Origin: Cirrosporium novae-zelandiae | Lineage: Eukaryota | Assembly (NCBI GenBank): GCA_026023565.1 | Contig: JAPETS010000006.1 | Location: 930,001 to 960,868, forward strand | DNA length: 30,868 nt | Direction: 5' to 3' | Part shown: positions 1,352-30,868 of the stretch, in pieces | Numbering within the stretch: the first letter of the stretch is position 1 | How the letters are laid out: the number at the start of each line of letters is the position of its first letter | The notes under the pieces: model-generated | Told to the model about the DNA's origin: nothing | What the model saw: the letters and a program-made list of their open reading frames with translations, nothing else | Databases searched by the model: none | Position numbers and translations under genes: made by a program

Positions 1352-1485
1352 CTCTCCGTTGATGGCAATAATGGTCTAACAATTATGAAGGATACGGCTG
1401 GTAGGGTCATAGTACCGACGCTTTGAACAGAACGTGCTTCATGTTTCATAGTGTCATTCGTTTCAGCATGTGGATTCCCATCAAG

Positions 1486-2651: not shown

Positions 2652-4020
2652 GTTTATCCGCCAAACGGTCAATTGCGGAATTAAGTGGAGGGATAGTAAT
2701 TTCGAGGGTACTGCACTTAATATAAATATCAAGATAAGAAGATTATCAGTGTCAAGGGGGAAGCTGAAATAAAGTATGATAGATATCTTATCTAGGGGTG
2801 GTGGATTACACTGGGAGGCCCCAGAACGCTTATGATGGTCTTTTGGTCTAAGGTGGGGGTTTTACTTTACCCCTCCATTTACAATAATAGACATGATTTT
2901 TGAAATAGCCTAATGACTTTCTACGGTCATTATTTGTTGGACTAAAATAAGATAAAATAGAGAAACCTGTAAAGATGAAGAAGATTGATCGACCTCGTTA
3001 CTAATGTTACTAATTAATTAATCACTGTGACGGGATTGGGGCAAGACTTTCAAGGATTGCAAACAGGATTGCAAACAGGTACGGTACATCATCTTCCATT
3101 CAGGTACCAGAAGAACTCAGATGCAAGGCCAAGAACCTCATGCAATGCTACAGTAGTGATCTTGTAATGTCATGGCTTCTGACAGATTGGAGTTTTTTGA
3201 TGATAGACCTTCGGATTCGGGATTCTCGTAATTCCATACCATGACATAGGTACTTCGGTACTTAAAATCCTCACGGGTTCGGGGTACAGCCACAACGCCA
3301 AACAAGGATATCTAAGCGAATTTACCAGGTGCGTCATCTCCTCCACACCCTCAGCTTTCATCATTCTAAAACTCTTAACCTATCATGGTTCTTGCATGTC
3401 ACCCGGAAATCCCACCTTTTCTTAGCCTTTCCATGACCCTTTTCTACCTATTCCCTTTTTGGTCATATTGTTGTTCACCTTTCCCTCCTCCCCACCATCC
3501 CTTCTTCTATAGAGGCACAGTAGGCCCTAGGCTCAATAATCTGCTGCGCCCATCTCCCAGGTGTTAGGATGACTGCCTAACTTGCCTACCAAATAATAAA
3601 TATTAATTACAATATTACCATTCCCCAGGAACCAGTACCCTTAAGTTTTAAACCCTTACATAGTAATCCCCCAAACTGCAACTGATAGACACTCGGAAGA
3701 ATTCTTTTGTATTTGCCTCCTCCATCTTTCCAATCTTTTATTTGCCATCTCCCATTTATACTCTTGTTTCTTACATTTTCCATAAGGCTGACCTGACCAT
3801 TCGACTCTTTTAGCTACCGTCATCTGGACGCGAGAAACTTCTTACCGCCCTACCCGCCATTACCAAATTCCTTGGCGCTGAGTACGAACTTCACGAGCAA
3901 ACTTTTACGTCTCTGTTTGCGCAGTTAAAAGAACCTCCTCGGTGCTGCTGCGCCTCGTGCGCTTTCTACCTTAATATCTTTTCGAGTTTCTTTCATTGAA
4001 GCTCTAAACCAACAATCAAA

Positions 4021-5887
4021 ATGGAAACTACAACGCTGCGGCGAAAAGATACAACAAAAGGACCTCCGTTGAGGATCCTATCGCTCGGTAAGAAATATCT
4101 ATTTTTATCTTCTTTTGCTTCCAGCTGACTTTTCGTAGATGGTGGTGGTGTTCGTGGTTACTCGATGTTTATCCTTTTACAGGAACTTATGTATCGAACA
4201 TATGTTGAAACCGAAGGCAAAGCTCCTAGAAGAGATCAAATCCCTAAACCATGCGATTATTTCGACTTGATCGGAGGTACCGGCACTGGCGGTTTGATCG
4301 CCATAATGCTTGGTCGTCTTCGGTTGGATATTGAAACTTGCAAGGAGGTCTATGTCCGCATGACCAAACGTGTTTTTGAAACAGACAAGACTTTTGCTGG
4401 GATACCCTTTCGCTCAACATTATTCAAAGCCTCGAAACTTGAAGAGGCTATTCGAGAATGTGTTAGACAACATACAATCTTTGAGAATGAAGGCAATGAT
4501 AGCGATGCTGGAAATATAATGACTCCAATGACGCCACCGAACCGAGTCCACAGATCGATAAGCAAGGCCAGCATCAGTACAACGGACAGCTTCAGCTACC
4601 GAAGTCCGGTTTCAAGACCCATAACCCCCATGCGTTGGGGAAATCCTAATGCTCTCCTGGAGGACAAACGAGAGAATCGTACAAAGACGTGAGCAATGCC
4701 TAATCTCCTATCGAGAACCATGCTAACAATATTATAGTTGTGTGACTGCTGTTTACAAAGGAACACCAAAAAATGCTCCCTCCGCTGTGCTTCGTTCCTA
4801 TGACTCTCGCAAGGAACCATCGCCAGAAGAACATGTTACTATCTGGCAAGCTGGTCGTGCCACTTGTGCCACTGCATTAGCATTTAAGCCTATTCAGATA
4901 GGTCAATCTGTTTTCATCGACGAAGGTGGAGGAACATATAATCCATCACCTCTCATACTCGAAGAGGCTGCGGTGAATGAATGGCCTAACCGAGAAGTGG
5001 GGGTTTTTGTGAGTATCGGTACGGGGAAAAGACCCGGAGGCACAAGCGGCAGACAGCATGAATGGTGGGAAGGCTTTATTGGTGGTGGTATTGGAGATTT
5101 TGCCGAAGCCCGGAGAAGATTAATCAACAAGATCGAAGGCTGCGAAGATACACATCAGGCCATGTTAAAGGATCATCTTTCAAGCAAGGGTGTGAATCGT
5201 GATAATTACTATCGTTTAAATGTGGAAGTGGGCGTGGGTGAATTCGGGATGAATGAATGGAACCGACTCGCAGATATCAGCACCAGCACAAGAAGATATT
5301 TATCTAAGAGAGATGTCCAAAACATGGTTCTAGATGCTGCAACTAAGATGGCTCGAATTGAGAGGGCATGTCGAAGACATAAACAGGCGATGATGCACCC
5401 AGGCGTCGAACCAGAACAGCCTTTACATGAGATCCCTCCCCCATCAAATCCTATGGTCGTGGAACTTCCTGCAGAAGATGTTATACTGCCATTGTCTCCC
5501 CACACTCCTCAATACCCAATGTCCCCTCCACCTATTTTCCAACATATTGCAGCTTCAGAGGATAAATTTGCTGTGCTATCACCGGATCAAGATATGATGC
5601 CAGGTAGGCTTTCTGGCGATCGTTACTCAGACCATGATCCTCGAACTTCGCATAGTTCAGTACACTCACCAAGGCGGAGCTATGAAGATCACAGCGGGTC
5701 AGACCTACCTCCCCCACCACCGCCAAAGACGCCACTACCATACCCTACAGAACAAGGACATAGGCAGCAAAGAAGCAGACACCACCATCGACAAAGAAGC
5801 TCCAACAACAAACTGCCCTATCCGGATGAGGATGGACCACCTCCAGTTGTAAATACGGCTAGGAAACCGGAATTTGTTGGAAGATGA
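4021..5887 (+). CDS. Patatin-like phospholipase-domain protein (predicted catalytically inactive) with a Pro-rich C-terminal tail, 3 exons
   Basis: Exons 4021-4087, 4139-4688 and 4738-5887. Introns 4088-4138 (GTAAGA..GCTGAC..TAG) and 4689-4737 (GTGAGC..GCTAAC..TAG). Splicing restores LRILSL|DGGGVRG. Other patatin motifs: PCDYFDLIGGTGTGGLIAIMLGRL, IWQAGRATCA, FIDEG, YNP, VSIGTG, YYRLNV. Confidence 0.93.
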
Positions 5888-6321
5888 ACCTAATCACCTC
5901 ATCAAATAATTTCCTAATTCTTTGTGTGTTTGGTAAATGAAAGCGAGGTGTTTCGGGGTTGGTTGGATTTTGGGAGATTTTTATCTTTTTTTTTTAGGGT
6001 TTCAAAGCTAGCCCTAAAACGATTCAAAAATCAAGGAGGGGAGGCTCTGATGAATTAATCTGTGTGCTGCACTTCCTCCCTATAAGGGGTATGGGAATTT
6101 TTCCGGAAACTTACATGTGTTATTATTACTACTACCACACCCTACCTTACCGATTACTTTTTTTTGTGATAATAGGAAACTGATTTTATGATTTTATGAA
6201 GACGAAACATGGACTGATTCTCATTAGTATACCTTTTTCTTTTTTGCTTGTTTGCTTGTTTGTTTATTAAGAAATGATTCATTTTCGGGTGAACGCATCA
6301 TACTTATGATTTGCTTGCACC

Positions 6322-6343
6322 TGTTGTTGTTGTTGTTGTTGTT
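6322..6343. repeat. (TGT)n microsatellite, ~7 units
   Basis: tgttgttgttgttgttgttgtt read directly from the sequence. Confidence 0.9.
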
Positions 6344-7364
6344 AGCTTATTATTATATCCAACTTAGAATTAAGAGAATAAAAAGTGTGTAAAATATTAT
6401 TTATATTTATGTATATTTCTGTTACAGTACAACTTGAATGCCTAGGATATTGATACCAATAAAGAAGGAAGGGAAGGGAAGGGTTTTTTAAGGGGTTGAT
6501 GATTATCATTTATATTTATTTATATTTATACCTTGCCAGTGCTCTCTTTATGACTATAGCATTACTTGTCTATCCTGATATAACAATTTTTTTTCTCTGC
6601 TTCTTTAAAATATCTAATAAGTATTTATTTATTTGAGGGAAAAGTAAGTTAAAATACACCCCTTAACACTCCCCCCCCCTTCTGCTACCATAAATATCTA
6701 CCATCAACGCCAATAAAGTGACATACATGGCCATGGTAAGTAGCAACCTCCTTCCCCTTTCCTTTCCTTACTAACCTAAGAAGCAATGATGATGATGATG
6801 AACATATTGTCATCGGAGTGTAGTGATATTATTATTATTATTTTCTTTGTCAAGGAAGGAAGAAAGGAAGGAAATAAGATATAAAAAAGGTCTTTGGGTC
6901 TGTAGATCGTAGATACTGCTGCTGCTACTGTTGCTAAAGGCTAGTTGAAGCGGATTGGGAGATGTGGAGGGGGGGGCACTGAAGGTGTTTGATTGCATGT
7001 TATATTGAAAGGAGTGAAAAGGGAGGTATCCGAGTTACTATTCTTAAAAAAGTTCCTTTATTCCTCCCTTTTGTGTAGAGATAGATAGATTAGAAGCAGC
7101 ACTTGTGTACATAAGTCCCACCTAACCCAAATCTTTACCCCCCCCTATTTTAGAGGTGGCTAAGAGGAAATATAATCCACCCTGGAGAAATTTCTTGCAA
7201 GGAAGGAGATGGTCATCTGTAAGATGATGTTAATAAACAAAATTCTTTTAAGTTCGATGATGATATTTGGGGATAATTAGGGCTGTAGAAGTAAGTTTTT
7301 TTTTTTTAACTGTAGGGGAGAATTTAGTTGGTTGGCCCCCCCCTGCCTGCGGCTTTGGTAGGGC

Positions 7365-7422
7365 ATGAATGGAATGGGATGGGATGGGATGGAATGGGAT
7401 GGGGATGGGGATGGGGATGGAT
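7365..7422 (+). repeat. Compound (GGAAT/GGGAT/GGGGAT)n repeat
   Basis: atgaatggaatgggatgggatgggatggaatgggatggggatggggatggggatggat, about 10 units of 5-6 nt. Confidence 0.85.
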
Positions 7423-9364
7423 TTTATTTCCATGAAGTTGTTAATCTTAGGCTCTCTCTTTGGTCTTGGCTTCGAGCTATTTGGAATCAATCTCTTTATT
7501 TAATAAATTTTTAGAAGTTTCTCCTATGGAACGTATTGCAAATCCTTTAAACCCCCGAGATCCTTTTTTTTTATTAGTTTGTTGTCTATTAATAAGGGAG
7601 CAATAGTCTATTGGCTGGCTTTTCTAAAAGTATATTTGGTTACGCTATGCTGATGGGATATGGAAGTTCTTTGGTACTATACAAAGCTCCTACTGAGAGA
7701 GTAAACAAGCGCTGCATGTCTTATAATCTTCGGACATCTCTTTTGTGATATAGTTTTTATTATGAAATAATGATGGGCCCACAGTTCTGCGGTCTTCACA
7801 GGTTTAATGGATATATGCTTGATCAGAGAGATGTTTTAGGGACTAGTTCAGGAACAGATAAAGACAAACGGCAGACTAATATATGGCATCTTAGTTGATC
7901 GATATTGTGCCGGAGTGTCTTTTGGCTACCTATGGCAGGTAGGAGAGTGTACTAACTAGCTATCCAATACCTTCAACCTTGCAAAGCTCAGCTTCGAACA
8001 CCAAATTGTGGCGCAGTAAGGCTAATGTCTTAATGGTGACACACTCTTGGATAATTATGAATCCCCATATTATTCAAAGGCCTTTCATTCTCATCGCATA
8101 TCAAGAGGCAGCGGCACTAGTCCAGGGAAGGTTTCGTTAATCATGTGTACTTTACTTGTACTCGACAAACTGATACCCATGTTCCATGGTCAGTCATACC
8201 TCCGTAGCCAACGGAAACATTTTAGGACACGAAAAGCTCCATGTTCCGTCTTTGGGTGTCGGATGCCATTAATACTAGGCTGGGTTCGATTCCCAAGAGT
8301 GCTAGTGATTGGTCACCATGGTGTTAGTGTTCTCCTTTGGGTTGATGGTTTTCGAAGGCTCGTGGCCCTCCGTAAAGTACTTTAATAATCAGGAATACCA
8401 GACCTCTGAAATAACTGATGCTGGGCTTATGCCTCAGAGCTTAAACTCTCTACTGAGCTGCCCGGCCAACGATTTACGATAGGCTAGACAAGGTACATTG
8501 ACTCATTAGGAAGTTCTGCAGACCGATACAATGTATGTCTATCAATGCTGAAAGAACTGCGAGGCTGTTAAAAAATTCTGCTCCTGGTGGGCTGGGTCAC
8601 AGTTTATTCCTATCGTAGTGTCCGAAGCTGCCAAGTCTTCTTCCTCAAGGGAGGGGGGACTAGCTTGACTTTCAATAAACCTCGTAGACACCTATTTTCT
8701 AATAGCTTGAAAGTTCGTGCTCGAGGATCCGATGACTTCTCTGTGAAAGCGTACTTGAGTAGGTTAAAAAAGGCATTTTAGCCCATACATAACCTCTTTT
8801 TTCTCAGGTTTAATTATCATCTTAATACTTCTGGCGGAATACTGTATAGTATTCTGAGGAACTTGGATAAGAGCATGTTGAGATATGGGAGATCAGTGTC
8901 ATTTCGGAAGAGACCAAGAGCTGAGACGTGAACATCAATTCGTGCTCTGAGAGGTGAACCACGGCAGAACATGCAGCCACGAGGATTTCTTCCGTGTCGT
9001 AGGTTGAGCAAAGATTTGCTTTTGAAAGCACTGGTATAAATATTAATGTCACTACTTCTAAAGCTAGCACACTATTGAAAACTAGTGCGACGACGTAACC
9101 TGGGAGGAGAAATCATCTAATTAGTTGTGGAATCAAGTTAAATACGAGCTGTGAGGTTTCGATCGGGCCTCATGAGTCCTATAAATATGTGTTGAATACT
9201 GTATGTAGGCTTAAGAAATCGTTGAAAGTGTAGGTGCGTGCGACTTTGATGTGGGAGACGCCTTGATTTTGATTCGGTGAATAGCAAATAGTGACATTCT
9301 CTGTTTGAGTAGGTTAACAAGAGGATCTACTCTGTGAGCTAGAACGTCGAGCTTCGCTATCACT

Positions 9365-10531
9365 TTACCGCCACCGGTTTCCAGATGGCGTGGGACCGAA
9401 CTCGCGGAATCCTTCTCCAATTAGGCCTGCTTGGGCTCGACGAATCGACGCCCATGTGTCAAGGATGTTGTCATATCCGTGCTCTTCTGCTGCTGTCATG
9501 TTGGCATCGACCCATGTCTCGGGGTTGTTGCGAACCTGGTAATTCTTTTCAAATCCTTTCGGGGCACCTGGGCATAAAGAAGTGTCTAGGAGGGGTTTAT
9601 TTTCTGTCTTCGGACTTGTAAGGTCTTCTCTCACTTCCAAACTGACAATAAAGCGCACAGCCGCAGCAAGGGAAACCCTTACTATGTCCATGTATTTCTT
9701 GATGACATCAAGTCTATCTAGAGGAAGAGACTATGATTTGAGGCCTTCGAAGGAGATTGGTGCACTTAGTCCTTCCTCCGCGCCCGTGCGAGCGATTAAG
9801 ACAGTTTGATACTGTGCAACCTTGCGAAGACTTACGAAGCTGGTTGATATGTCTTTACAGTCCTTATCGCGGTAATCCAAACGATCGATAATCACGACAA
9901 TGGCGTTGTAGAGGGGAAATAAAGAGTAGTGTTGTGAGTTTGAAGGAAATAGTTTGATGATGTTATCGGCTCGCCCTTTGGCTTGATTTATAAGGCTAGA
10001 TGCTTGTGTGCGGAGAGAGCGATGTGCGTTAAGAACCCCAGGTATTGTCGAGGGACCTGTCGAGGTAATTCTCACTGGGTTTGCAAAGAAATGGCCGTAC
10101 TCGATGTTTGGTTCAGCATTGTAGCTCTGGAGCCATTCCTCGTAAATAGCTGCCAATATGATTTTAGGTGTTTGCGTTCTTTGTCCGAAGCAATCAGTGT
10201 GCTGGCCCGACTGCAGCTAGTAGAATGCTGTCGGTTCATTGCAAAAGTCTTTCAATTTGCCAGGCTCCACTTTGCCAACCGTATCTTCTAGAAGTATTCT
10301 GTAATCGTCTACCGTCGCCCATAATATTTTCGTATCTCTCAGCTGCACCTTGATTCTTGTGGGGGGTGTCCGACGATGCCATAATTCCTGGGCAAGCTGC
10401 CATAGAACCGGAACTATCAACGCCTTGTGAGTTGACAGAGGCGTCAATATGATATGTTTGGCGAGATAGGTATATTTATACCCTTCGGCTAAGAGAGTTT
10501 AGGAATCGCCTCGACAGTAATTATGTTTCAT
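9365..10531 (-). pseudogene. Pseudogene of an unknown protein: one 389-codon frame broken by three internal stops
   Basis: The ORFs 10217-10447, 9731-10156 and 9365-9691 are all in the same minus-strand frame, and the gaps between them are open. An in-frame ATG lies at 10531. Internal stops are TAA (10499-10501), TAG (10217-10219) and TAG (9731-9733). The read-through looks like a globular protein (...YNAIVVIIDRLDY...QTVLIARTGAEEGLSAPISFEGLKS*SLPLDR...IVRVSLAAAVRFIVSLEVRE...). Confidence 0.75.
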
Positions 10532-17874: not shown

Positions 17875-19665
17875 TTACAATTCCTCCTCTTCCTCTAACA
17901 AACTCTCCTGACTCAAAAAATCAATCAGTGGTGGTCGAGGAAGACTGTCCATGAGACTCTCCGGTAGAAGTTGAGTTGCTGTTAGGATGGCTCGCCTGTG
18001 CGGTTGTAAAGGTTCTGAGAGTTCTTCATGCCGGTCTGCGGTTTTATTTATAGGATGTGCTGAAGCTGGTGCCGGGGGAGATGAGGATATTTCACGTGTA
18101 TGGGTTTGTGTCGCCCCCCCGGTTTTACGTTGAGATGGAGATGAAGATACTAGGTCTATGACTTCTTCGTCCTCGATAGGCCGTCGTTTTCGTTTTTGGG
18201 AGCCGGGGTGGAATGGAGAGCTGGGTTCGTGGCGTGTTGGTGGCATGTTGAGTTGGGATGAAGGTTGGGTTACGTCGACTGTGGAGACTTGGGAAGGGGG
18301 GAGGGGGTTGTTGTTGGTGGTAGTGGGGGATTCGGGTCGGGAAGATCCTGTGTTTGTTGTTTTTGAGTCGATGGAAGGGTCAGGATCGAGATGATACGGT
18401 GATGATGGAGCTTGGGTGTAGTGCATCAAGTCGCCTATGAGTTGGTCGGATGCTTCCTCCTGGGATAGGGAGTGCGGGGTTGGTGAGGGGTGTTGAGATT
18501 TGTGACGTCGAGATGGCGATGGGGTGGATTGAGACGCTTGGATTTCGTCCGGAAGAAAGGGGAGGGAAAATTGAGCGTTGTCTGAAAGGTCTACTTGGGT
18601 TTGTTCAAGGCGTCTTATAAATGTGGATATGGGAGTGTTGGCTATAAGCTGGGTGTTATGATCCGATGCTTGAGGATTAGGTCTTTGGGTGAAAAGAGCT
18701 CGAGGTGTTGGATCGTTTGGAGAGTGGTGGGATGATGATAGGATGGCTTGGGTTTCTGCTCCAATTGGGTATTCCTCGTCTAAATCTGAATCGTCTGCAG
18801 TCTCGTCGTCCGAGTCACGGATTTCTGTCTTGATAGGCTTGTCACTGGTTGATCTTGCAAGATCTGGAGAAACGCTGTGCAGGACCATCTCTTCTTCGTT
18901 ACTTTGGCTTTTCTGTGTCTGGGGAGTAAACTCTGCCTCTTTTGGTAGTTCTTCTAGTCTTGATGCAAAGCTCTGTGTATAGTCTGTGGCATTTTCTTGT
19001 GATACACTGCTTTTAATAACTGGTTTTGGTGGCTTAATCGGGCTTTTCCTGGATCGCATAGATGAAGTGAGGGGTGCAAAGAGATTTGTCGACCTTTCTT
19101 TTAGTGGTGACCTTGATAGTGCTCTAACTGACCGAACACTTCTGATAGATAGCGGTGTAGCATCTGGAGACTGCGAGGATGGAATTATCCTAGGCTTTGG
19201 CCTATGTGGTGTTTCTGGGACTTGCATCATTGTCTTTTTTAATGGAGATTTATGCTTCTCCACCGGTGTAGGATATTCTATTTTTTTGCTTCTATTCACC
19301 CCCGTGGGACCCTTTGTAGATTTTGTTATTACCATTTCATTCTCTTTATCATCCTCTAATGGCCTAGCGGCATATTTCGGCGTTGGATGTCCATAGACAA
19401 TCTTGCGCCTTTTGGGACGTCTGGAGGAGTCCATTTCATCAGCATCGACGTAATCCAGCTCCAAATCCGAAAGATCTGGAGCCTTGATAGGTGTGATGTA
19501 GCCAAGTTGTGTAAGCGTCGATTGTTCAAGTTGAATCTTGGAGCGTGGATGTAATGACCGGAAGTTGGAGACCGTACGGCGGTATTCGGGTGGAAGTTGT
19601 GGCTGTCTTACTTTAGGAGCGGTATTTGAATCCAAAGATAATCGACTTTTGGAGCGTGAAGCCAT
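17875..19665 (-). CDS. Uncharacterised, largely disordered S/T/P/Q-rich protein (~596 aa), probably nuclear
   Basis: Long uninterrupted ORF. The first ATG is at 19665 (MASRSKS...), whereas the track start at 19701 is a TTG. It carries NLS-like RRPKRRK and KRKRR, about 22 SQ/TQ dipeptides, QSTLTQLGYI near the N-terminus and ILTATQLLPESLMDSLPRPP at the C-terminus. A GCTAAC..CAG acceptor at ~19689 suggests a possible upstream intron, so the start is uncertain. Confidence 0.85.
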   Translation of the reverse strand: MASRSKSRLSLDSNTAPKVRQPQLPPEYRRTVSNFRSLHPRSKIQLEQSTLTQLGYITPIKAPDLSDLELDYVDADEMDSSRRPKRRKIVYGHPTPKYAARPLEDDKENEMVITKSTKGPTGVNRSKKIEYPTPVEKHKSPLKKTMMQVPETPHRPKPRIIPSSQSPDATPLSIRSVRSVRALSRSPLKERSTNLFAPLTSSMRSRKSPIKPPKPVIKSSVSQENATDYTQSFASRLEELPKEAEFTPQTQKSQSNEEEMVLHSVSPDLARSTSDKPIKTEIRDSDDETADDSDLDEEYPIGAETQAILSSSHHSPNDPTPRALFTQRPNPQASDHNTQLIANTPISTFIRRLEQTQVDLSDNAQFSLPFLPDEIQASQSTPSPSRRHKSQHPSPTPHSLSQEEASDQLIGDLMHYTQAPSSPYHLDPDPSIDSKTTNTGSSRPESPTTTNNNPLPPSQVSTVDVTQPSSQLNMPPTRHEPSSPFHPGSQKRKRRPIEDEEVIDLVSSSPSQRKTGGATQTHTREISSSPPAPASAHPINKTADRHEELSEPLQPHRRAILTATQLLPESLMDSLPRPPLIDFLSQESLLEEEEEL

Positions 19666-19783
19666 TGGTATGCCGAGAGTCGATAAACCTGAAGTATCCA
19701 AAGAGTTTAGCAGTTAGCACTGAGCTAATAATACTTTTGTAATGATGATGGTATTCGACTGTGACACGGTATGAGCGATCAAA

Positions 19784-20170: not shown

Positions 20171-23041
20171 ATGGCCAGGAGGTCTACTAAAACCCGGGCT
20201 TCTACGCCAGCTACACGACGCAGTCGACGAAATGCGCGCCAAACTCCAGAGCCTGTCATCCCAGATGTATACCGAGAAATGCTTGAAGAAGCTGCCAATT
20301 CAACCCCGACTAGTTTTAGTGATGAAGGCAGGACCGTTAAAAGACGTAGGGTTGGCGGTAGAACAGTTCAAAAGCAGGAAGATGAACCCAAGACATTGCC
20401 GAATGATAGTCTGTCCGAAGACCATGACGAAAATGGAAACATAGCTACCGATACCCTCGAACCTCAGCTTGAGCAGGTTGCTTATAGGGATGTAGAATCA
20501 TCCGAAGAAGATGAGGATGGGATGGACTGGGAAGAGGTGGATATAGCTCAAGCAGCAGAAACAACACCAAATAGAGAGAGAATATTCAACAAGGATCAAG
20601 GAGCCATTGATATTGTCCTTGACCCAACCCCATCCTCGAATGAGCCATTGAGGGTCAGGAGAAAACCTGCTACTGTTCTAGAACGTAAGATGAAATTAGA
20701 AACCCATAAAACGCATCTTCTTTGTCTAATTGCACATGTTCATATTCGGAACATTTGGTGTAATGATTTTCAGCTTCAGGTATCATTTCCGGAATTGATT
20801 TGTCCTTACAGTAACATTTTGATGCTGACATCCGGAATAGGCTTCGTTGAGACCTATTCTAAGCAAACGTACTGTGTCGTACCTTAATCCATCAGAAGAC
20901 AAGTCTCAATTTCAGAAAGCGAGGTCCTTCCGAGATGGGCTTGAGCAAGCTTCGGAGATGTGGAAAAAGACCTTCAAAATTACGGCCAAGGGATTAAGAA
21001 GACCATATTGGGCTGAGAATACTGATTCTTTGAAGGATGTACGTAGACCTGAAAATTAAAGCTGACCTAAAGCATTTGTATTTAATAGTGCAAGCGCTTA
21101 CATTGGAACAGGTCAGACTATCTGACGACTTTGACCAAATTGCAGATCTATCAGATTTTCGAGAAGCAGCCGAAAAGCTAGAAGGCTCTCGAGATGTGGG
21201 CGCACAGCTTTTTTGTGCTTTGTTGCGAGCCGTGGGAGTTGACGCACGTCTAACCTGTTCTTTACAGCCGTTACCATTTTCAGGCATTGCAAAGGGCATG
21301 ATCCCTCAGAGAGCAAAAAGGGACTGGATTGTTGTGGACGCCGATGGCTACCTTTCTTCTGGTAGTGAAAGTACAAAAAACCCTTCGGATGCAGAGAGCA
21401 ACCTTCCAGCGTCCCCCGTTGCTGAGTCTAATACACCAGCTCGTCCAAGGCGGCGACTTGGACAGCCCAGCTTTGCACCTAATCCTCCAAATAGGACACC
21501 TAGGCCTACCCCGAAGCCTTCTCATGTCAGACGTCCCATCAAAGAATCTTCCCATCCCGTCTACTGGATCGAAGCCTTCAATTCTGCTCACCAGAAATAC
21601 CTTGCCGTTGACCCGCTTGTCACGGGAACTATTGGTAGACCATTTAAACTTGCTCCTCCTGCCTCTGATGCTTTGAACAATCTCAGTTATGTCCTATCTT
21701 TTACCGAAGACCTTACCGTCCGTGACGTCACTCGACGCTACACCCAATTCTACAATGCCAAAACCCGTCCCAATCGCATTGACAAAACTCCCCAAGGCTC
21801 CAAATGGTTCCGTCGAGCGCTACGATACCTTCGCAACCCTTTCCCGACAGACGCCGAACAAATCGAAGATGCCGAACTAGCGGCTCGTGAAGCACAGGAG
21901 CCAATGCCCAGAAATATCCAAGATTTCAAACACCATCCGTATTACGTTCTGGAGCGACACTTGCGTCGAAATGAAGTCCTACATCCAAAACATGAGGTTG
22001 GAAAGGTTAGTGCAGGACCAACAGCCCCTCTAGAATCCGTCTTTCGACGCAAAAACGTCCATCCCGTGCGAAGCGCAGATGCGTGGTATCGAGTTGGGAG
22101 AGTAGTTAAAAGTGGCGAACAGGCTTTGAAGGTTGCAATGCCTAGCCGACGACGAACTACCCGTCTAAATAATGCAGAGATGGGTGAGAGCGATGAGGAA
22201 GAAATGGAGCAAAGACCTGGAACAAGACTATATGCTTTCTTTCAAACAGAACCCTATATCGCACCGCCCGTGACAAATGATCTTGTCCCCAAAAACGCTT
22301 TTGGGAACATTGACCTTTACGTCCCTTCCATGCTACCTGACAACAGCGCGCACATTCGGCATCTCCTCGCAAAACAAGCCGCCCGCATCTTAAACATAGA
22401 CCACGCCGACGCCGTTGTAGGATTTGAATGGAAAGCAGGTCGGGGGACCGCCGTCAAGGATGGCGTAGTCGTGAGTAAAAATTTCGAAGAGGCCATGAAG
22501 GAAACACTCGAGGGTATGGAAGTATTACAGGAAAACAAAGAAATAGAGGCAAGAAGAAAAGAAGTTCTGGATACTTGGAGGAAGTTTCTGCTGGGGCTGC
22601 GGGCATATGGGAGAGTCAGAGAATATTTTGCGGAGGGTGATATTGAAGAGGATGAAGTAGATGAGGAAGAAAAAGAGGTTTCTAGAGGAGATGAGGAGGA
22701 AGACTATGAGGGCGCTAGAGGAGAAGGAGCGGGGGGGGGGTTCCTACTTGAGGCTAATAGCGCATCAATTACTGAGCCAACAGCAAAGCCGAGGATTCTT
22801 GATCACGACATAGAAGCAGAAGAAGGTGGAGGATTCCTCGTTGCTGATGAAAATGAAATTGATGCTCCAGCACCGATACCACACCCCTCACCTTATACGC
22901 AAGAGCCTCCAGAACTCTCGCACCACTCTGACGATGACGACGGCGGAGGAGGAGGATTCCTTCTGGAAGAAGACGATGATACAACCTCGCAATACCCCCA
23001 TTCGCATCTAGCTACAGCTTCCTTGCCTCTAGAAAATCCTC

Positions 23042-23122
<81 letters not shown>

Positions 23123-23517
23123 CCTTAACACGAGATTTAGATCAGGATCCAGATTCATACTCAAACCCCCACCCCCAAAACACCAACACCAACCCCCACC
23201 CAGAACCCCTCCTACGCCAACCCACCCTTCTAGAATTTGCCTCCCCCACCACCATCACTATAACCTCCACCAAATCTCCACACCCACCCATCCAAACCCA
23301 AACAGAACCCCAACCCCGAGAAGAAGAAAAAGAAATCGAGGATATAATAAACGTAAATGCACATGTCGATGGGGATGAAGGGCTCAAAGAAGAAAAAGAA
23401 GGAGAAGAAGGACAGAAAGAAGAAGGTACCGATAGCGACTCCTCAATCGATAAAACATCATTGATTTCGCATGATCCTGAGGATGATGAGGATGATGAGA
23501 TGGGATTTTTTGGGTAG
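20171..23517 (+). CDS. RAD4: DNA repair protein Rad4/XPC (nucleotide excision repair damage sensor), 3 exons (~1070 aa)
   Basis: Exons 20171-20779, 20841-21038 and 21112-23517. Introns 20780-20840 (GTATCA..GCTGAC..TAG) and 21039-21111 (GTACGT..CAG, acceptor chosen to keep frame). Motifs: HKTHLLCL..H..IRNIWCND, GSRDVGAQLFCALLRAVGVDARLTCSLQPL, PVYWIE, RDVTRRY, MPRNIQDFKHHPYYVLERHLRRNE, RSADAWYRVGR, VPKNAFGNIDLYVPSMLP, ADAVVGFEW. These match the transglutaminase-like and BHD1-3 domains. Confidence 0.97.
23044..23121 (+). repeat. (AAC)26 perfect coding trinucleotide repeat giving poly-Asn in the Rad4 tail
   Basis: 26 uninterrupted AAC codons, in frame. Confidence 0.95.
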
Positions 23518-24275: not shown

Positions 24276-27200
24276 CTACAAAAACCCCACCCCCTTCCAC
24301 CCTTCAACCCACTTCTCAACCCACCCCCCCCCGACCTCTCCACAATTTCTAAGCCTCTCACTAACCGCACATGTAGCTTCCGTATTGAAAATCCTCTCAT
24401 TCCCTCTTCCCTTTTCCTCACTCTCCCCACCACCCCCTTCTCCTTCTTCTTCTTCTTCCTCCTCATCAGCCATTCCCTCAAAAAAATCCAAGAGTTTAAG
24501 TCCCGGACACTCGGATATAGAAGGTGGAGGGGGGTTTTGTTGTTGGGAAAGCAATTTCAGGGTTTTGGTCCATGTGGGTAGGGGGGTTGGGGTTAGTAGG
24601 GGTTTATGTTTATGAGGGGAAAGGGGAAGGGAGGAGAGAAGGTGGGTTTGGAGAGTGGACCAGGGGATTGGATGGGGGTTTGTTATGTTGTGGATTTTTA
24701 GTTTTGGGGGGGTTGGAGAGGAGGAGGATAATATGATATCGCGGATTGTATCTGCGGCAATGTCGATGGGGACCCAATCTACCGTTTGGGATCCGTACTT
24801 GAGGGTTGGGAGGATGCCGAGGTGTGAGGAGGTTTTGAACATGATGGGCCACATGTCGTTGGTGCTCCACCAGCCGGTTCTGGTATCGCCGCATAGTTGG
24901 CCTACGCGGAGGATTGTGGCGGTGTGGTTTTGATTGTTTTTGTGGTGGGTGGCAGTATAGGTTTCTAGTAGGCGCTCGATGATGTATTTGGATTGGGCGT
25001 AGCCTGTGGGGAGGGGGTTTAGAGGAGAATGAGGGAGTAGGGAAGTTGGAATCGTGGGTGGGGCGGCAGGCCCCATGGATGCGGCAATGGAGGAGGTGAA
25101 GAGAAATTGTGGGGGTGGGAAGCACGACGATGTGGTTGCGAAGTGTAGGAGGTTGAGGGTTCCACGGATACAGTCGGAGGCGAAGGCCGGGAGAGGCTGG
25201 TTGAAGTTTACTTTCCAGGCGTTGTGGAGGATTGTTGTTGTGGTGGTCTGTAGGGTTTGGTAGGTCGAGGCTGGGAGGCCTAGGAGGGGGGATGTCATGT
25301 CGTAGGTGAGCGGCTGGATTTTGTTGGTGGAGAAGAGGGATTGGGCGTCGAGGCCGCGTGCTTGGATTGCGTTGTATAGGCGGGTTTCTGGGTCGGAGCC
25401 TCGAAGGAGAGCGTAGATTTTTGAAACTTTGGGGGATCGAGTGAGGGATTCGAGGAGGGTGATGCCCAGGCCACCCGATGCTCCGGTGAGGAGAATCACT
25501 TCGCCTTCGTCGCCAGGTCTCTCTTTTATGTGAGTAGGACCTTGCCAGGATTTAATTTCGTTGGAGTAGGTCTCGATCATGTCGTTAATAAGTGCGGTGT
25601 AGTCTTTCTTTACGTCTTTTTCGTCTTTATTTTCGAAGTAGGTCACTAGTTGTTCCACACTTGGCTGCTCGAAGATGACACCTAGGGACATGGGACCGAG
25701 TCGCTTTGAGAGCGTGGCACGGAGGGAGAGACTGAGAATCGAGTTTATTCCCAGGTCGTAAAAGCTTGTGGAGGGGTCGAGCTCAGAGGCGGGGACGTTG
25801 CAAAGATTCGCCACAGCTCTGTGGATGAATAATGAAAGTGGTTCGTCTGGATCTTGGGATTCTGTTGTGTCAGAAGCTCCGTTCTCGAGGGCAGAATATA
25901 GATCTTCGATTTCCTTGCTGAAGATCTTGAGGACTTCGCCACGTTTGACATTGCCTTTAGGGGTAATAGGGAGTGAAGTGTCTTCAGGGACGATGTAGAT
26001 CATTGATTGCATAATCTTTGAGTGTGCAGCTTGCTTTTTGTTGACTTCTTGGATGGCTTCCCATACTTTTTGACGAACGGAGGGACCTGATGGGTCCGCA
26101 GTCAGCTCTAGAATTGCTGCAGTACATGGTCTAGAATGACCAAGGATAGCGGCCTTGCATATTAGATCGGAAGAAGCGACTATATCCATCTCAAGAGGGA
26201 GGGCATTGGTGTTCTCGCCATTTGAATGAACGAGCATATCATCCTTTCTTCCCTGGAGGACAAAAAGTCCACTATTCGGGGGATCTTGTATGAACATATC
26301 ATTCGTTCGATATGGCTCATCTTCTGGCTTATCGATCCACAATTCCGCAGCAAGTTCAAACCCTTTCCAAACTATGCATTCATACATACCCTCCCCAATC
26401 TCTTGCATTTCGATTTTCGGATTGTCGGGATATAAATTTCGGAATGCATAACATCGGGGGTTATCTCTTGTATGTGGAATTGTTCGAAAAGGTGGTCCGA
26501 TCTCTGTCGAGCCATAGGTGCTTTTCACATTGCAGCCTTTTTCTACCAGAGAAGAAACAATTGAGTCGGATAGACGGGCTCCGCCTGGTTGTAGTATCTT
26601 AAGTGAAGATAGAGGCGTAAAGTCATTTCCATTGGTAGATAGATGGTCATGTAAATTTTCGATGAGGGTTGGCGCACAGTGGACGCAATCTATAGGATAT
26701 CCCATCGAGCCCAAGGTATTCCAAGCTGCGAGAATAGCTGATGACGACGGAGGCCATATTCGAGGAGGAAATGATAACGCCTGGCCGTTGGGAAACCCCG
26801 AAAGAGCTGTTGAAATCCCCGCAATGTGGTAGACAGGAAACAGAAGAAACCAGTTTTCGATATGAAATTCTGGGAAAATTCGATACATGCGGGCAATTAG
26901 CATCATGCTCCTATTTGTATGAATAATTGGTTTTGGCATTCCCGTCGAGCCACTTGAATGGATTATGTACGTTTGTCGTTCCCATGGATCCCTACCATCC
27001 TCGAATTTGAACGCTTCAACTTTACCTATTGCCTTTGGATTATTTTGCAAGATTTCTTCAACCATGTTGATTTTTTTAATTCCTGCTAAATCCTGGTTGA
27101 TAAATCTAGATTCTACCACAGCCGCTACGGCATTGCATTTCTGCAGGAGGTGGTGAGTGGCTGGCAAAGCATTTCCATGGGCTAGTAGAAGTACTCGAAG

Positions 27201-27617
27201 GTTCAACTTTTGTAAGGCAAGCTCGGTGACAAAGTATTCAAAGGTATTTCCCTGTCCAAGTAGAGCTACTGTTGGTTGTTCTTTGGACGCATTTGCAACC
27301 TCCAACTCCGATTGCAGAGTATCCAAATAGCTAGCAGCTATGGTTTCTGTGTACTGATCAAATTCATACCATGTTACTGGGGCATATGAAGTGTCCTTTT
27401 CCGAGGTCTTTGGATATAAGAAAGCTGTCTGTTCAGGAAAGACCCGGGCATTGTGCCGCACCAAAGCACCCAGGGTTACAAGGTCTGGACTTGAGAAGCG
27501 AGTAGACCATGGATGTCCGTGAAGAAACCATAATTCTTTAGTTTTTTGAGGCGCTGAAGGAGAGACAATGACGCTTGGATCGGAAGAATTATAGTCGGAG
27601 AATTCAATAGAACCCAT
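24276..27617 (-). CDS. NRPS-like A-T-R enzyme (adenylation-thiolation-reductase; carboxylic acid reductase-like), intronless, ~1113 aa
   Basis: First ATG at 27617 (MGSIEF). A domain: YIIHSSGSTGMPKPIIH, YGSTE, YRTND, GRKDD, PITPKGNVKR. T domain (~25840-25630): FYDLGINSILSLSLR, IFEQPSVEQL. SDR-type R domain from ~25500: ILLTGASGGLG, ILHNAWKVNF, FTSS, GYAQSKY (YxxxK), LRVGQLCG, WVPID. There is no condensation domain. Confidence 0.95.
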   Translation of the reverse strand: MGSIEFSDYNSSDPSVIVSPSAPQKTKELWFLHGHPWSTRFSSPDLVTLGALVRHNARVFPEQTAFLYPKTSEKDTSYAPVTWYEFDQYTETIAASYLDTLQSELEVANASKEQPTVALLGQGNTFEYFVTELALQKLNLRVLLLAHGNALPATHHLLQKCNAVAAVVESRFINQDLAGIKKINMVEEILQNNPKAIGKVEAFKFEDGRDPWERQTYIIHSSGSTGMPKPIIHTNRSMMLIARMYRIFPEFHIENWFLLFPVYHIAGISTALSGFPNGQALSFPPRIWPPSSSAILAAWNTLGSMGYPIDCVHCAPTLIENLHDHLSTNGNDFTPLSSLKILQPGGARLSDSIVSSLVEKGCNVKSTYGSTEIGPPFRTIPHTRDNPRCYAFRNLYPDNPKIEMQEIGEGMYECIVWKGFELAAELWIDKPEDEPYRTNDMFIQDPPNSGLFVLQGRKDDMLVHSNGENTNALPLEMDIVASSDLICKAAILGHSRPCTAAILELTADPSGPSVRQKVWEAIQEVNKKQAAHSKIMQSMIYIVPEDTSLPITPKGNVKRGEVLKIFSKEIEDLYSALENGASDTTESQDPDEPLSLFIHRAVANLCNVPASELDPSTSFYDLGINSILSLSLRATLSKRLGPMSLGVIFEQPSVEQLVTYFENKDEKDVKKDYTALINDMIETYSNEIKSWQGPTHIKERPGDEGEVILLTGASGGLGITLLESLTRSPKVSKIYALLRGSDPETRLYNAIQARGLDAQSLFSTNKIQPLTYDMTSPLLGLPASTYQTLQTTTTTILHNAWKVNFNQPLPAFASDCIRGTLNLLHFATTSSCFPPPQFLFTSSIAASMGPAAPPTIPTSLLPHSPLNPLPTGYAQSKYIIERLLETYTATHHKNNQNHTATILRVGQLCGDTRTGWWSTNDMWPIMFKTSSHLGILPTLKYGSQTVDWVPIDIAADTIRDIILSSSSPTPPKLKIHNITNPHPIPWSTLQTHLLSSLPLSPHKHKPLLTPTPLPTWTKTLKLLSQQQNPPPPSISECPGLKLLDFFEGMADEEEEEEEGEGGGGESEEKGRGNERIFNTEATCAVSERLRNCGEVGGGWVEKWVEGWKGVGFL

Positions 27618-27725
27618 GGTTGATGTCAAGGAGGCTGATGTAGAAGCAAGGGATGAAAAACGAAAGGCCAAACAGAAAAACAAGAAAAGTAGCAGCGGGG
27701 TACATATCTACAAATGAGAGAGCTT

Positions 27726-28132
27726 GATAATGAACAGGTGGGATAAATTATGACCATTTCGAATGAGTACCTAGGTATTGAGCATGGATGAATATGGACG
27801 AGTATGGATGAGTATGGATGAGTATGGATGAGTATTATTGATTGTGTATTGGTGGTGGGTTTTGACGTCTCATTCGATTACAAGCCTTACGTGGGCTTAC
27901 TGAATCTTACGGCAGAAGAAACCAACGATACCGGATGACCGATACAGATAATTATCTAAAACTCCGACCACCTGCCATCATATCATCGCCATTTCGCGTT
28001 TCCTTATCAATTGACCATCCACTAACTGATACCTACTTCCGATAACCGTTGATGCCCCCAATTTTTGTTTTTTCTCTTACAATGCTGCATGACAATCTAA
28101 TCGAGAACTTTACTAGCATCTGCCTAAGATAA
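27726..28132. promoter_or_regulatory. Cluster of seven GATAA sites (candidate AreA/NIT2 nitrogen-regulation elements)
   Basis: GATAA on + at 27726, 27742, 27947, 28041 and 28128. TTATC at 27952 and 28004. The cluster includes the palindrome AGATAATTATCT (27946-27957). Confidence 0.55.
27780..27835. repeat. 10-bp tandem repeat (GAGTATGGAT) x ~5.5
   Basis: gagcatggat gaatatggac gagtatggat gagtatggat gagtatggat gagtat. Confidence 0.9.
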
Positions 28133-28345
28133 TGAGGTACCATTTTTGCTAGTAGGGGGTACTCTGACCCTGAAATCCTTCTTTCAGTCGATCATCATCT
28201 CATGGGTCGCATGATACCAGACCTAGAAAATGCTAGGACGATGGAGCTCCAGTCCCAGCTATTCTACAAGAAAGCTGGGGAACCCTTCCTTTTTTTTGGT
28301 TGATCAGTGCTCCTTTGTGAAAACAACGAGAACACCTACCCCACC

Positions 28346-30071
28346 ATGTTGCCAGCTGCCATCAAGAGGTTCGAGCTCCATCCTGAGCCTGGTTCCTTTG
28401 CATCAGGCCCAAATGGTCTCCCTTCCAACAAGGACCTCGATCCGGTCCCAAGAGATTCCGAAGATCGGAAATGGACATGGCCTTCATTACTTGGTTTTTG
28501 GATTGCGGAAGCTTTTACTATCTCCATGTATCAAGTTGCCTCTACTTCCATTAAGAAAGGTCTAAGCCCAGGCATGGCTATCGGAGCCATCATCGTTGGC
28601 CACTGTCTGGTCTGTATACCAGCAATGGCCAACGGTTATGTTGGATGCATTTATGGCATCAATTTTCCAGTGATGATGCGATCGACTTTTGGTATTTATG
28701 GAGCATATTTTGCCGTGTTTGTGAGAGGAATTGTTGCCTGCATCTGGTAAGTTCAGGCAATATATACACGTTATACGTTATACAGCACCCAGCTAAATCA
28801 TTTCACCTAGGTTTGGCACCCAAAGCTTCCAAGGAGGCCAATGCGTCCAAACAATGCTCGAAGCAATCTGGCCATCATTCGAAAACTTCCCCAACCATAT
28901 CCCCACAAGCGCGCACGTAACAAGTGCGGAGATGCTCTGCTTCTTCATCTTCATCATCATCGAAGCGCCCCTCCTCTGGGTGCGGGTAGCCAAACTCCGC
29001 TACCTCTTCATGATGAAAACAATCGTCATGCCCATCTTCGGCCTAACACTCTTCATCTGGGCCGTCGTGGCAGCCAAGGGCTTCGGTCCAACCTTCTCCA
29101 AACCAACAAAAATCATCGATGGCACCCCCGTCGTCGTAGTCTTCTTCCAATGCATCACCAGCGCCATCGGGCCCAAAGCGACCCTCGCCCTAAACATGCC
29201 CGACTTCACCCGGTACGCACGCCACCCTCGCCAAGTCTTCTGGACGCAAGCCGCAGGCCTCATAATCCTCGTAACCCTCTGCGGCATCCTCGGCGCAACC
29301 GTAACCTCCGCCTGCGAAACCATCTACGGAGTCTCCACCTGGAACCCGCTCCAAGTCTCAAAACTGTGGAACAACCGGGCCGCCCAGTTCTTCTCAGCCC
29401 TCTGCTGGGCCTTTGCCGTAATCGGCACCAACATCTCCGCAAACTCCGTCTCCTTCTCCAACGACCTCTCGCTCTGGTTCCCAAAATGGATCAACAACCG
29501 CCGGGGGGCCTACGTCTGCATGCTCATCTCCATCGCCTGCACCCCCTGGAACATCCAATACTCGGCCAAAACTTTCTCCGCCTTTTTGGGATCTTACTCC
29601 CTCTTCCTCGGCCCCATCGCTGGAATCATGATGGTTGATTACTGGATCCTGCGCCAGAGATTCTTAAACATCCCCTCCCTATACCGCCACCCAGACCTCT
29701 ACTCCTTCTTCCACGGTCTCAACCCCCGCGCCTTCATCGCCTTCGTGTGCGGGATCACGCCCAACCTACCGGGTCTTGCGAATGCGACGGGCCAGAGTGG
29801 GGTCCCGACGGGTGCTATTTACTTGTATAGTTTGAGTTGGTTGATTGGGACGGTGATTGCGAGTACGGTTTATTATGTACTGGGGAGGGTGTGGCCGATG
29901 GATGTGGGGAAGGGTGAGGGTGGGGATGAGATTGTGGGGGTTGGGGAGGCGGAGTTATGGAAGGGGGAGGTGGGGGTGGGGGAAGGGGGTGATGGTAAGG
30001 GGGGTGTTGTTGGTGGGGAGGAAGGTTATGAGGTTAAGAGGGGTGCTGTGGGGGTGGAGAGGAACTTTTAA
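28346..30071 (+). CDS. NCS1-family nucleobase:cation symporter (Fur-type uracil/allantoin-like permease), 2 exons (~553 aa)
   Basis: Start ccaccATG at 28346. Exons 28346-28746 and 28811-30071. Intron 28747-28810 (GTAAGT..GCTAAA..TAG). Motifs: NKDLDPVP, RKWTW...FWIAEAF, YGINFPVMMRSTFGIYGAYF..FVRGIVACIW|FGTQ, NMPDFTRYA, GTNISANSVS..NDL..WFPKWINNRRG, PWNI, FLGPIAGIMMVDYW, GLNPRAFIA. Confidence 0.95.
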
Positions 30072-30246
30072 GGAAAATACATATCCATATACCTACAGTA
30101 TATACATCCAAACAAAATAAAACGATCCATCCATCCATCCATCAACTACCCACCCAATCAAATTCCAAAAAATAAAAAACCCCCGTTCCCCATTATAGTA
30201 CAGTTAATTCATAATGCTCAATAGAAAGGATAATTAAAGGCCTAAC

Positions 30247-30278
30247 ATCCATCCATCCATCCATCCATCCATCCATCC
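30247..30278. repeat. (CATC)n tetranucleotide microsatellite, 8 units (a shorter run lies at ~30125-30143)
   Basis: catccatccatccatccatccatccatccatc read directly from the sequence. Confidence 0.9.
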
Positions 30279-30868
30279 TAGTAGGGGGACAAGTACTGTA
30301 GGTAAATTGATTAAAAAAAAAATTTCATTTTCATGGAGTTATAACTTTACTTATAAATGGGGTTGTTGAGGGTATATACATACAGTATAAATAAATAAAT
30401 AGATAACTAATCCTTGTAGTCTAGTGAGGAGAAGTTTTTTTTTTTTTCTTTCTCTGGGTTAGAAACTCCGAAGATACCTACCTACATAATCAGTAGAAAT
30501 GATAATTAACTGTTACGTTGTTCCCTATTACAGTAGGTTAGACTGCTAGTCTAGGGGACATAATTAATAATTATGCCCTATTCTAGGGCTAGGCTAACCT
30601 TTTTATAAGGTGAGGAGGAGGAGGAGGAGGAAGAGGCTCTTCAGCCTTGGAATTCTAGACCGCCAGTCTGTCAAATAATATCACACTCAGTTGGACTACC
30701 CCTACTGGTTAGTAGAAGGCCGAGTAATATATGTGACAGGATTAAAAAAAAAGAAGAGAAAGAAAATATGTCAAGTGGTGGAATGAATTATTTCGATAAA
30801 TAGTATATGCTTGTTCTATATTTAACTAAGTACGTAAGAGAAGGGGAAGTACTTATTTCTCCCCTCCC

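Follow-up and report, generated by a model that had tools for sequence, protein, structure and literature searches.

A divergent carboxylate reductase and NCS1 permease gene pair from Cirrosporium novae-zelandiae as putative core of a variable fungal catabolic cluster

Results and discussion

In this study, we analysed a stretch of 30,868 nucleotides from the fungus Cirrosporium novae-zelandiae (assembly GCA_026023565.1, contig JAPETS010000006.1, positions 930,001 to 960,868 of the forward strand), in the following called the window and numbered from its first letter, in which a nonribosomal peptide synthetase (NRPS)-like carboxylate reductase with adenylation, thiolation and reductase domains (A-T-R) and a permease of the NCS1 family are encoded head-to-head. 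We propose, with somewhat better than even confidence, that this pair constitutes the conserved divergent core of a variable fungal nutrient-assimilation cluster, with permease and reductase acting in one pathway.

The reductase coding sequence (24276..27617, minus strand) is a single exon of 1113 codons plus stop, identical to database protein P0002; its open frame reaches 27683, where an upstream TTG is located, and the first ATG lies at 27617. The permease coding sequence (join(28346..28746, 28811..30071), plus strand; 553 residues, identical to database protein P0122) comprises exon 1 (28346..28746, plus strand; residues 1-134, the last codon being split), an intron of 64 nt (28747..28810, plus strand; GTAAGT...TAG) and exon 2 (28811..30071, plus strand; residues 134-553 plus stop), which ends in a Gly/Glu-rich, repetitive C-terminal tail. 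Between the two ATG codons lie exactly 728 bp (27618..28345), presumably a shared promoter. An earlier note on this DNA had described the head-to-head arrangement at this distance, which the gene models confirm, and it had placed RAD4 on one side and low-complexity DNA on the other, with no polyketide synthase (PKS), tailoring enzyme or efflux pump in view. Scans for open reading frames (ORFs) and repeats agree with this picture: RAD4 (21037..23517, plus strand) lies tail-to-tail with the reductase gene, and the 14 long ORFs of the window that were scanned included none for a PKS, a tailoring enzyme or an efflux pump.

Conservation of the pair

In named genomes, adjacency was read from locus-tag or accession numbering among the matches listed. 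Reductase and NCS1 orthologues are numbered consecutively in at least seven named species, namely Mollisiaceae sp. (EG329_008428/008427), Oculimacula yallundae (VTL71DRAFT_2483/2484), Neodothiora populina (AAFC00_005801/005802), Meristemomyces frigidus (two assemblies), Colletotrichum acutatum (CaCOL14_000400/000399), Dothideomycetes sp. NU459 (g3943/g3944) and Aureobasidium pullulans (four strains, consecutive by accession), and they are next-but-one in at least two (Rhynchosporium agropyri, RAG0_00370/00372; Elasticomyces elasticus, LTR56_007343/007345). The search for synteny of both orthologues that the earlier note had suggested was thus positive: to these at least nine species, at least twelve more can be added in which both genes reside on one contig, as judged from equally long contigs (Amylocarpus, Rhexocercosporidium, Phlyctema, Lachnellula subtilissima, Colletotrichum navitas, Diplodia corticola, Diplodia seriata, Baudoinia, Phialocephala subalpina, Mollisia scopiformis and two Cadophora species). 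The linked named species span Leotiomycetes, Dothideomycetes and Sordariomycetes. For the organism of the identical permease P0122, a source gives Xylobotryomycetes as class.

Distance and strand could be observed directly in metagenome contigs, which were scanned with the reductase alignment and yielded 30 loci, corresponding to 20 organisms by nucleotide identity. In thirteen of these 20, 1.2 kb or more of sequence precede the reductase start, and these were considered informative lineages. An NCS1 orthologue lies upstream and on the opposite strand in seven of the 13 (L007, L009, L010, L012/13, L017/28, L019 and L027), with 57-78% identity to the window permease (tblastn, best high-scoring segment pair (HSP) per locus) and spacers of about 0.6 to 3 kb, and the intron position of the window permease is common to L007, L009 and L012. 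Downstream of the reductase, at the place of RAD4 in the window, a RING-finger gene is found in L007, L009, L012 and L018. Since the flanks vary while the pair persists, we regard the pair as the conserved unit. Gene order is largely scrambled between ascomycete classes, and retention of the divergent pair across four classes in spite of this speaks for selection acting on this unit. Compact fungal genomes frequently have genes standing head-to-head, which would be the case for a chance adjacency of two unrelated genes in this particular genome; we nevertheless consider chance highly improbable, because many genomes from other classes show this neighbourhood again, with matching orientation.

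The spacer itself is not uniform in content. In L012, the 3-kb region between permease and reductase (6943-9967) contains four plus-strand ORFs of 118-175 residues without a Pfam match, and in Rhynchosporium, which is related to L012, one numbered gene lies between permease and reductase.

Cluster partners in related loci

The surroundings of the pair were assessed in nine loci, of which 123 ORFs (at least 118 residues, within 7 kb) were searched against Pfam and cross-searched by tblastn. In L004, a Fungal_trans transcription factor gene (504-2105, minus strand), an Asp/Glu/hydantoin racemase gene (3197-4099, plus strand) and a C-N hydrolase gene (4388-5540, minus strand) are followed by a gap of 4.4 kb and the reductase gene. 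The order in L011 is racemase, transcription factor, C-N hydrolase, a gap of 3.2 kb and reductase, and in L003 racemase and hydrolase precede the reductase. In L019, the reductase of which is nearly identical to that of Aureobasidium pullulans, racemase (3731-4687, minus strand), a transcription factor with Zn_clus and Fungal_trans domains (5339-7215, plus strand), NCS1 permease (7642-9054, minus strand) and reductase (from 10001, plus strand) stand together. Among named genomes, the racemase is four gene numbers away from the reductase in Scytalidium lignicola, and a racemase-hydrolase fusion lies two gene numbers from the NCS1 gene in Taxawa tesnikishii.

Judged by sequence, the C-N hydrolase is clearly a close homologue of N-carbamoyl-D-amino-acid hydrolase: it matches the D-carbamoylase structure 1erz at 3.3e-72, with the next family, N-carbamoylputrescine amidohydrolase, at 3.2e-12, and the segments FPE, KYRK-HLPG and ICNDRRWPE are conserved. 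Top solved matches of the racemase are allantoin racemase 5lfd (1.8e-20) and hydantoin racemase 3qvj (5.7e-20), and two Cys-containing segments, which we take to be the racemase motifs, are retained. An NCBIfam equivalog was found for neither racemase nor hydrolase. Many gene models join homologues of racemase and D-carbamoylase in one protein (PF01177 + PF00795, 400-540 residues; P0243, P0244, P0270, P0302 and others), which may be true fusions or merged neighbours.

A tree of 54 reductases (FastTree, local support only) follows fungal classes, and NCS1-linked and racemase-linked reductases interleave in both of its main branches. This interleaving points to one orthogroup residing in a variable cluster, rather than to two paralogues. 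The occurrence of the reductase beside a Zn2Cys6 transcription factor, racemase and carbamoylase elsewhere thus suggests a variable, hyu-like catabolic cluster that has the pair at its core.

The reductase

The reductase comprises an AMP-binding domain (PF00501, residues 54-384, 26466..27458, minus strand; Pfam E 1.2e-26) with the motif SSGSTGMPK and His264 in motif A4, an AMP-binding_C_3 domain (PF23562, residues 459-577, 25887..26243, minus strand; E 1.5e-27) with the invariant K554, a PP-binding carrier domain (PF00550, residues 598-660, 25638..25826, minus strand; E 4e-12) with the phosphopantetheine-attachment residue Ser626, and an NAD_binding_4 thioester reductase domain (PF07993, residues 710-958, 24744..25490, minus strand; E 8.6e-37) with TGASGGLG and Y873-x3-K877. 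In an alignment of 28 reductase orthologues, the carrier Ser626, the NADPH motif T711-G712-x-x-G715-x-x-G718 and Tyr873 are kept in all 28 rows, His264 and Lys877 in all 27 rows that are ungapped at the respective position. With its catalytic motifs intact, the protein looks active.

A His residue in A4 marks acid-activating enzymes, an Asp residue those activating alpha-amino acids. Profile alignment to bacterial carboxylic acid reductases (CARs) places the segment FPVYHIAG of the reductase, rendered FPlYHIAG in the profile, on MPMSHV/IAG. The adenylation domain is therefore predicted to be of CAR type, not of amino-acid type, and the His in A4 speaks against a substrate that is a free alpha-amino acid. 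At the canonical A10 Lys position of bacterial CARs, the window protein has Asn556 (23 Asn, 4 Ser and 1 Thr in the 28 rows, where the loop alignment may be shifted), and the invariant Lys554 lies two residues upstream (TPKGNVKR; residues 554-556, 25950-25958, minus strand). Either the catalytic Lys would be displaced in this family, or its adenylation site would be unusual.

The reductase domain finds its best solved relative in 8aep (5.7e-31 with the single sequence, 5.3e-61 with the profile), to which it aligns over the full length and which we take to be this domain from a fungal CAR of broad specificity. For the adenylation core, no solved relative below E 1e-5 was found in a single-sequence search, and a resemblance to oxalate-CoA ligase (1.2e-9, profile) was not used, as it barely exceeds that to FadD5 and EntE. 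Assignment to Lys2 was rejected (TIGR03443, 94.4 bits against a cut-off of 1030.1), as was assignment to the bacterial CAR equivalog (NF041592, 65.2 against 1300), and TIGR01746 reaches 141.7 bits, below its cut-off of 213.35. The glycine betaine reductase ATRR has a second reductase domain; the window protein has a single NAD_binding_4 domain and ends with it, the C-terminal 150 residues aligning with the end of the reductase domain of 8aep, and it is therefore not of the ATRR type.

The closest non-self relative among the matches listed is 51% identical. Bacterial relatives were found in 59 loci, with a full-length match only in two Polyangiaceae metagenome-assembled genomes (L031 and L032; 27% identity, residues 42-1107), and no homologues of the NCS1 permease, racemase, hydrolase or transcription factor were found near these 59 loci. 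A language-model similarity search returned only generic AMP-binding clusters. Residues ~1050-1075 form a low-complexity, Gly/Glu-rich segment with a EEEEEEEGEGGGG run, where the family consensus is shorter.

The nature of the adenylation domain bears on the possibility of a minimal secondary-metabolite locus, in which a reactive aldehyde from the A-T-R enzyme would be turned into a small natural product and the NCS1 protein would provide precursor supply or self-protection. Permease, Zn2Cys6 regulator and hydrolases together are the usual pattern of fungal catabolic clusters, and the neighbours observed here are of this hydrolytic, catabolic kind. In line with the window, the flanks of the nine loci scanned yielded no PKS, NRPS, tailoring enzyme or efflux pump, and A4 carries His instead of the Asp of amino-acid-activating domains. 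We therefore regard such a locus as quite improbable, even though some orthologues are automatically named 'NRPS-like protein biosynthetic cluster' or FUB8-like and amino-acid-reducing A-T-R enzymes build piperazines according to the accessible text of PMC9605436.

The permease

PF02133 spans both permease exons, with profile positions 2-99 in exon 1 and 101-440 in exon 2 (E 2.7e-76). TIGR00800, with a cut-off of 353.1 bits, scores 251.7 bits on exon 2 alone and 318.8 bits on the L019 permease, read as a 471-residue stop-to-stop frame lacking the N-terminus. Sequence classification thus identifies the window permease as a predicted Fur-type NCS1 protein. Its closest non-self relative among the matches listed is 75% identical. 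The sole solved relatives are structures of the hydantoin permease Mhp1 (2jln, 4d1a; ~1e-15), with which the Trp/Gln of transmembrane helix (TM) 3 (WFGtQ) and two Asn of TM8 (TNisaN) are shared; we take these to be the hydantoin-ring-binding residues in Mhp1. Trp220 and Gln42 of Mhp1 are both replaced by Thr. The Gly/Glu-rich tail of the permease is encoded by tandem repeats of 36-39 nt (29934-30064).

Members of the NCS1 family transport thiamine, nicotinamide riboside and pyridoxine, and a salvage route for a vitamin or cofactor would accordingly combine a Thi7/Nrt1/Tpn1-like importer with a reductase that regenerates the aldehyde or alcohol from an oxidised vitamin acid (e.g. 4-pyridoxate, nicotinate or a thiazole or pyrimidine carboxylate), which would fit the acid-to-aldehyde chemistry. 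We consider this improbable. For the L019 permease, models of allantoin permeases rank higher in NCBIfam than the hydroxymethylpyrimidine transporter CytX, and the cluster partners seen elsewhere are homologues of hydantoin racemase and D-carbamoylase and not vitamin enzymes. A screen of spacer, intron and 5' region gave no riboswitch, for thiamine pyrophosphate (TPP) or otherwise, the sole Rfam row being far below the gathering score.

The intergenic spacer

The 728-bp spacer contains six HGATAR sites, including the perfect palindrome AGATAATTATCT (27946-27957). A 10-bp unit, TGAGTATGGA, is repeated in tandem at 27779-27835, with 5.7 copies. Across nine spacers, the octamer CGGGCAAG occurs eight times in five (L012, L019, L027, L010 and L021), with several copies in L012 and L019, and it often adjoins CGATAAG; three of the five organisms are closely related to one another. 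CGGGCAAG is a candidate site for the Zn2Cys6 factor of the cluster. A UaY-type element, TCGG-N6-CCGA, was found in none of the nine spacers.

Proposed pathway and its alternatives

We infer that both genes are co-regulated and act in one pathway, for which the following sequence of events can be envisaged. The Fur-type NCS1 symporter would import a ureide or hydantoin-like nitrogen compound, which, where racemase and carbamoylase are present, would be opened up and de-carbamoylated by these enzymes. The A-T-R enzyme would adenylate a carboxylic acid occurring in this pathway, whether the compound taken up or a product thereof, load it on its carrier domain and release the aldehyde using NADPH. 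A more specific version, which we put forward only tentatively and hold to be less probable than not, is an undescribed eukaryotic assimilation of hydantoins or N-carbamoyl (ureido) acids, in which importer, racemase and D-carbamoylase would feed the reductase and the acid or ureido acid would be converted to the aldehyde.

Several observations weigh against the proposed common pathway. Regarding linkage, numbering in named genomes is a proxy for adjacency only and gives neither distance nor strand. Five of the 13 informative lineages yielded no NCS1 gene (L001-3, L004-6, L011/18, L008 and L026, with only ~2 kb examined for L008 and L026). The gaps of 3-4 kb in L003, L004 and L011 contain no NCS1 remnants at E up to 10, and those of L004 and L011 share no coding similarity. 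In the organism of L021-24, the NCS1 gene at the same place (L021, 3301-4831, minus strand) is very divergent, with at most 42% identity to any orthologue, and that of L010 (403-1876, minus strand) consists of five HSPs in three frames, looks frameshifted and may be a pseudogene. Conversely, NCS1 orthologues (53-69% identity) are found as well in Eurotiomycetes, yeasts and basidiomycetes, from which no reductase orthologue was present among the 120 matches listed. Together with the five lineages without NCS1, this indicates that neither gene strictly needs the other.

Regarding the cluster partners, homologues of racemase, hydrolase and transcription factor are absent from the 30.9 kb of the window (tblastn). 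The window stops 797 bp beyond the permease, and it is in this direction that transcription factor and racemase are located in L019. In Xylogone, racemase and reductase reside on different contigs. A hydantoinase or dihydropyrimidinase of the amidohydrolase type was found neither among the 123 flank ORFs of the nine loci, where small exons and genes more than 7 kb away could escape, nor among the window ORFs scanned. The hyu scheme, moreover, has no counterpart to a carboxylate reductase. Regarding regulation, CGGGCAAG is absent from the window, and an excess of GATA sites as evidence for nitrogen control had to be dismissed: six observed sites compare with 2.85 +/- 1.63 expected from dinucleotide shuffles (P 0.06), and 20 of 302 equally sized windows reach six HGATAR sites. 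The excess is thus not significant and provides no evidence of nitrogen control.

In a different explanation, both genes would be co-located with no metabolic relation, and a bidirectional promoter would be shared by a general importer of pyrimidines, allantoin or uridine and a broad-specificity CAR, for example one for aromatic-acid detoxification. The arrangement would then persist since breaking it would disturb both genes. Such a case is favoured by the lineages in which the reductase lacks NCS1, by the wider distribution of the NCS1 orthogroup compared to the reductase orthogroup among the matches listed, and by the presumed broad specificity of the CAR behind 8aep. It is less easily reconciled with the retention of the pair across four classes while flanks change, and with the independent linkage of the reductase to racemase, D-carbamoylase and a Zn2Cys6 regulator of the pathway type. 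Relaxed substrate ranges, which would likewise suit mere co-location, are reported for NcCAR and TtCAR in PMC9605436. Overall, we judge mere co-location to be unlikely, and we retain the common pathway as preferred reading.

The earlier note had interpreted the two genes as a two-gene module for import and reduction. Its central part stands, as the pair is the conserved core; the restriction to two genes does not, as a larger, variable cluster is found in other lineages. Its further proposal, that an importer paired with a carboxylate reductase points to salvage or catabolism of an N-heterocyclic or ureido acid rather than to export of a secondary metabolite, gains support from synteny and from the racemase, D-carbamoylase and Zn2Cys6 neighbours and is weakened by the lineages without NCS1.

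Comparison with known systems

In bacterial hyu clusters, the NCS1 permease Mhp1, a hydantoin racemase and an N-carbamoyl-amino-acid hydrolase are grouped. The related fungal loci resemble them in the grouping of an NCS1 protein with a hydantoin-racemase-family enzyme and an N-carbamoyl-amino-acid hydrolase, and the window permease in the TM3 and TM8 residues of Mhp1. In contrast to hyu clusters, the fungal cluster is eukaryotic, features a Zn2Cys6 factor where a regulator is seen, lacks a hydantoinase in the flanks scanned and has as its most constant member a predicted ATP- and NADPH-dependent carboxylate reductase, the window being reduced to permease and reductase only.

A second parallel is found in the yeast DAL4-DCG1 gene pair, where a Fur-type NCS1 gene adjoins a gene of the Asp/Glu/hydantoin-racemase family in a nitrogen-catabolic cluster; the best solved match of the fungal racemase being an allantoin racemase fits this likeness. 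Unlike the yeast DAL cluster, the fungal loci scanned contain no allantoinase, allantoicase or ureidoglycolate lyase, and a D-carbamoylase homologue and the A-T-R gene are present instead. Membership of the NCS1/Fur family (PF02133, TIGR00800) is shared with FurA, FurD and FurE of Aspergillus nidulans, which published excerpts associate with allantoin, uracil and uric acid.

With fungal CARs of the NcCAR type (8aep), the window reductase has in common the A-T-R layout, the A4 His, the carrier Ser and the motifs TGxxGxxG and YxxxK; it differs in that its family displays Asn, Ser or Thr at the position aligned with the A10 Lys, with the invariant Lys two residues upstream, and has a conserved permease partner. 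As in the case of ATRR, an NRPS-like reductase would operate in primary metabolism or salvage and not in natural-product synthesis. Lys2 is likewise an A-T-R enzyme of primary metabolism, from which the window protein differs by having His and not Asp in A4.

Fungal catabolic clusters consisting of permease, regulator and enzymes are already known as a kind, as are A-T-R reductases. Full-text searches found no publication connecting an NRPS-like or carboxylic acid reductase with an NCS1 permease, and none connecting fungal hydantoin-racemase and carbamoylase genes with an A-T-R reductase or NCS1 permease. Both an NRPS-like gene and an NCS1/uracil permease are mentioned in PMC8306183 and PMC5372324, with no link drawn between them in the accessible portions of either text. 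A survey of 84 fungal CARs (PMC9605436, 2022) distinguishes, in its accessible text, seven clades, two of them without a characterised member. Within these known kinds, we regard the find as a form of its own: a conserved, uncharacterised and probably catabolic fungal cluster with an A-T-R reductase as constant member.

Further features of the window

The 797 bases 3' of the permease (30072-30868) have a G+C content of 35% and contain (CATC)n, (ATCC)n, (ATAA)n and (GAG)n arrays. Besides the genes described above, a MOSC protein, a patatin-like protein and a NIPA-type Mg transporter were recognised among the long ORFs. An open frame of 608 residues (17875-19701, minus strand) has no Pfam match and lies in a region of strong G-over-C skew (0.42 for 18001-19000).

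Conclusions

If the link between permease and reductase is functional, it would provide a testable function for a reductase family which is widespread in plant-associated and rock-inhabiting ascomycetes, with Colletotrichum, Aureobasidium, Rhynchosporium, Diplodia and Hortaea among its carriers, and it would give a hint how fungi might use hydantoin-like or ureido compounds as nitrogen source. The fungal homologues of D-carbamoylase and hydantoin racemase would then be added to the enzyme families of the industrial hydantoinase process, and the reductase itself could be a new carboxylate reductase for aldehyde biocatalysis. Should the more specific pathway for hydantoins or ureido acids hold true, it would constitute a third primary-metabolic role of A-T-R enzymes, beside Lys2 and glycine betaine reductase, and would assign a function to a CAR-like clade without characterised member that is widespread in Pezizomycotina.

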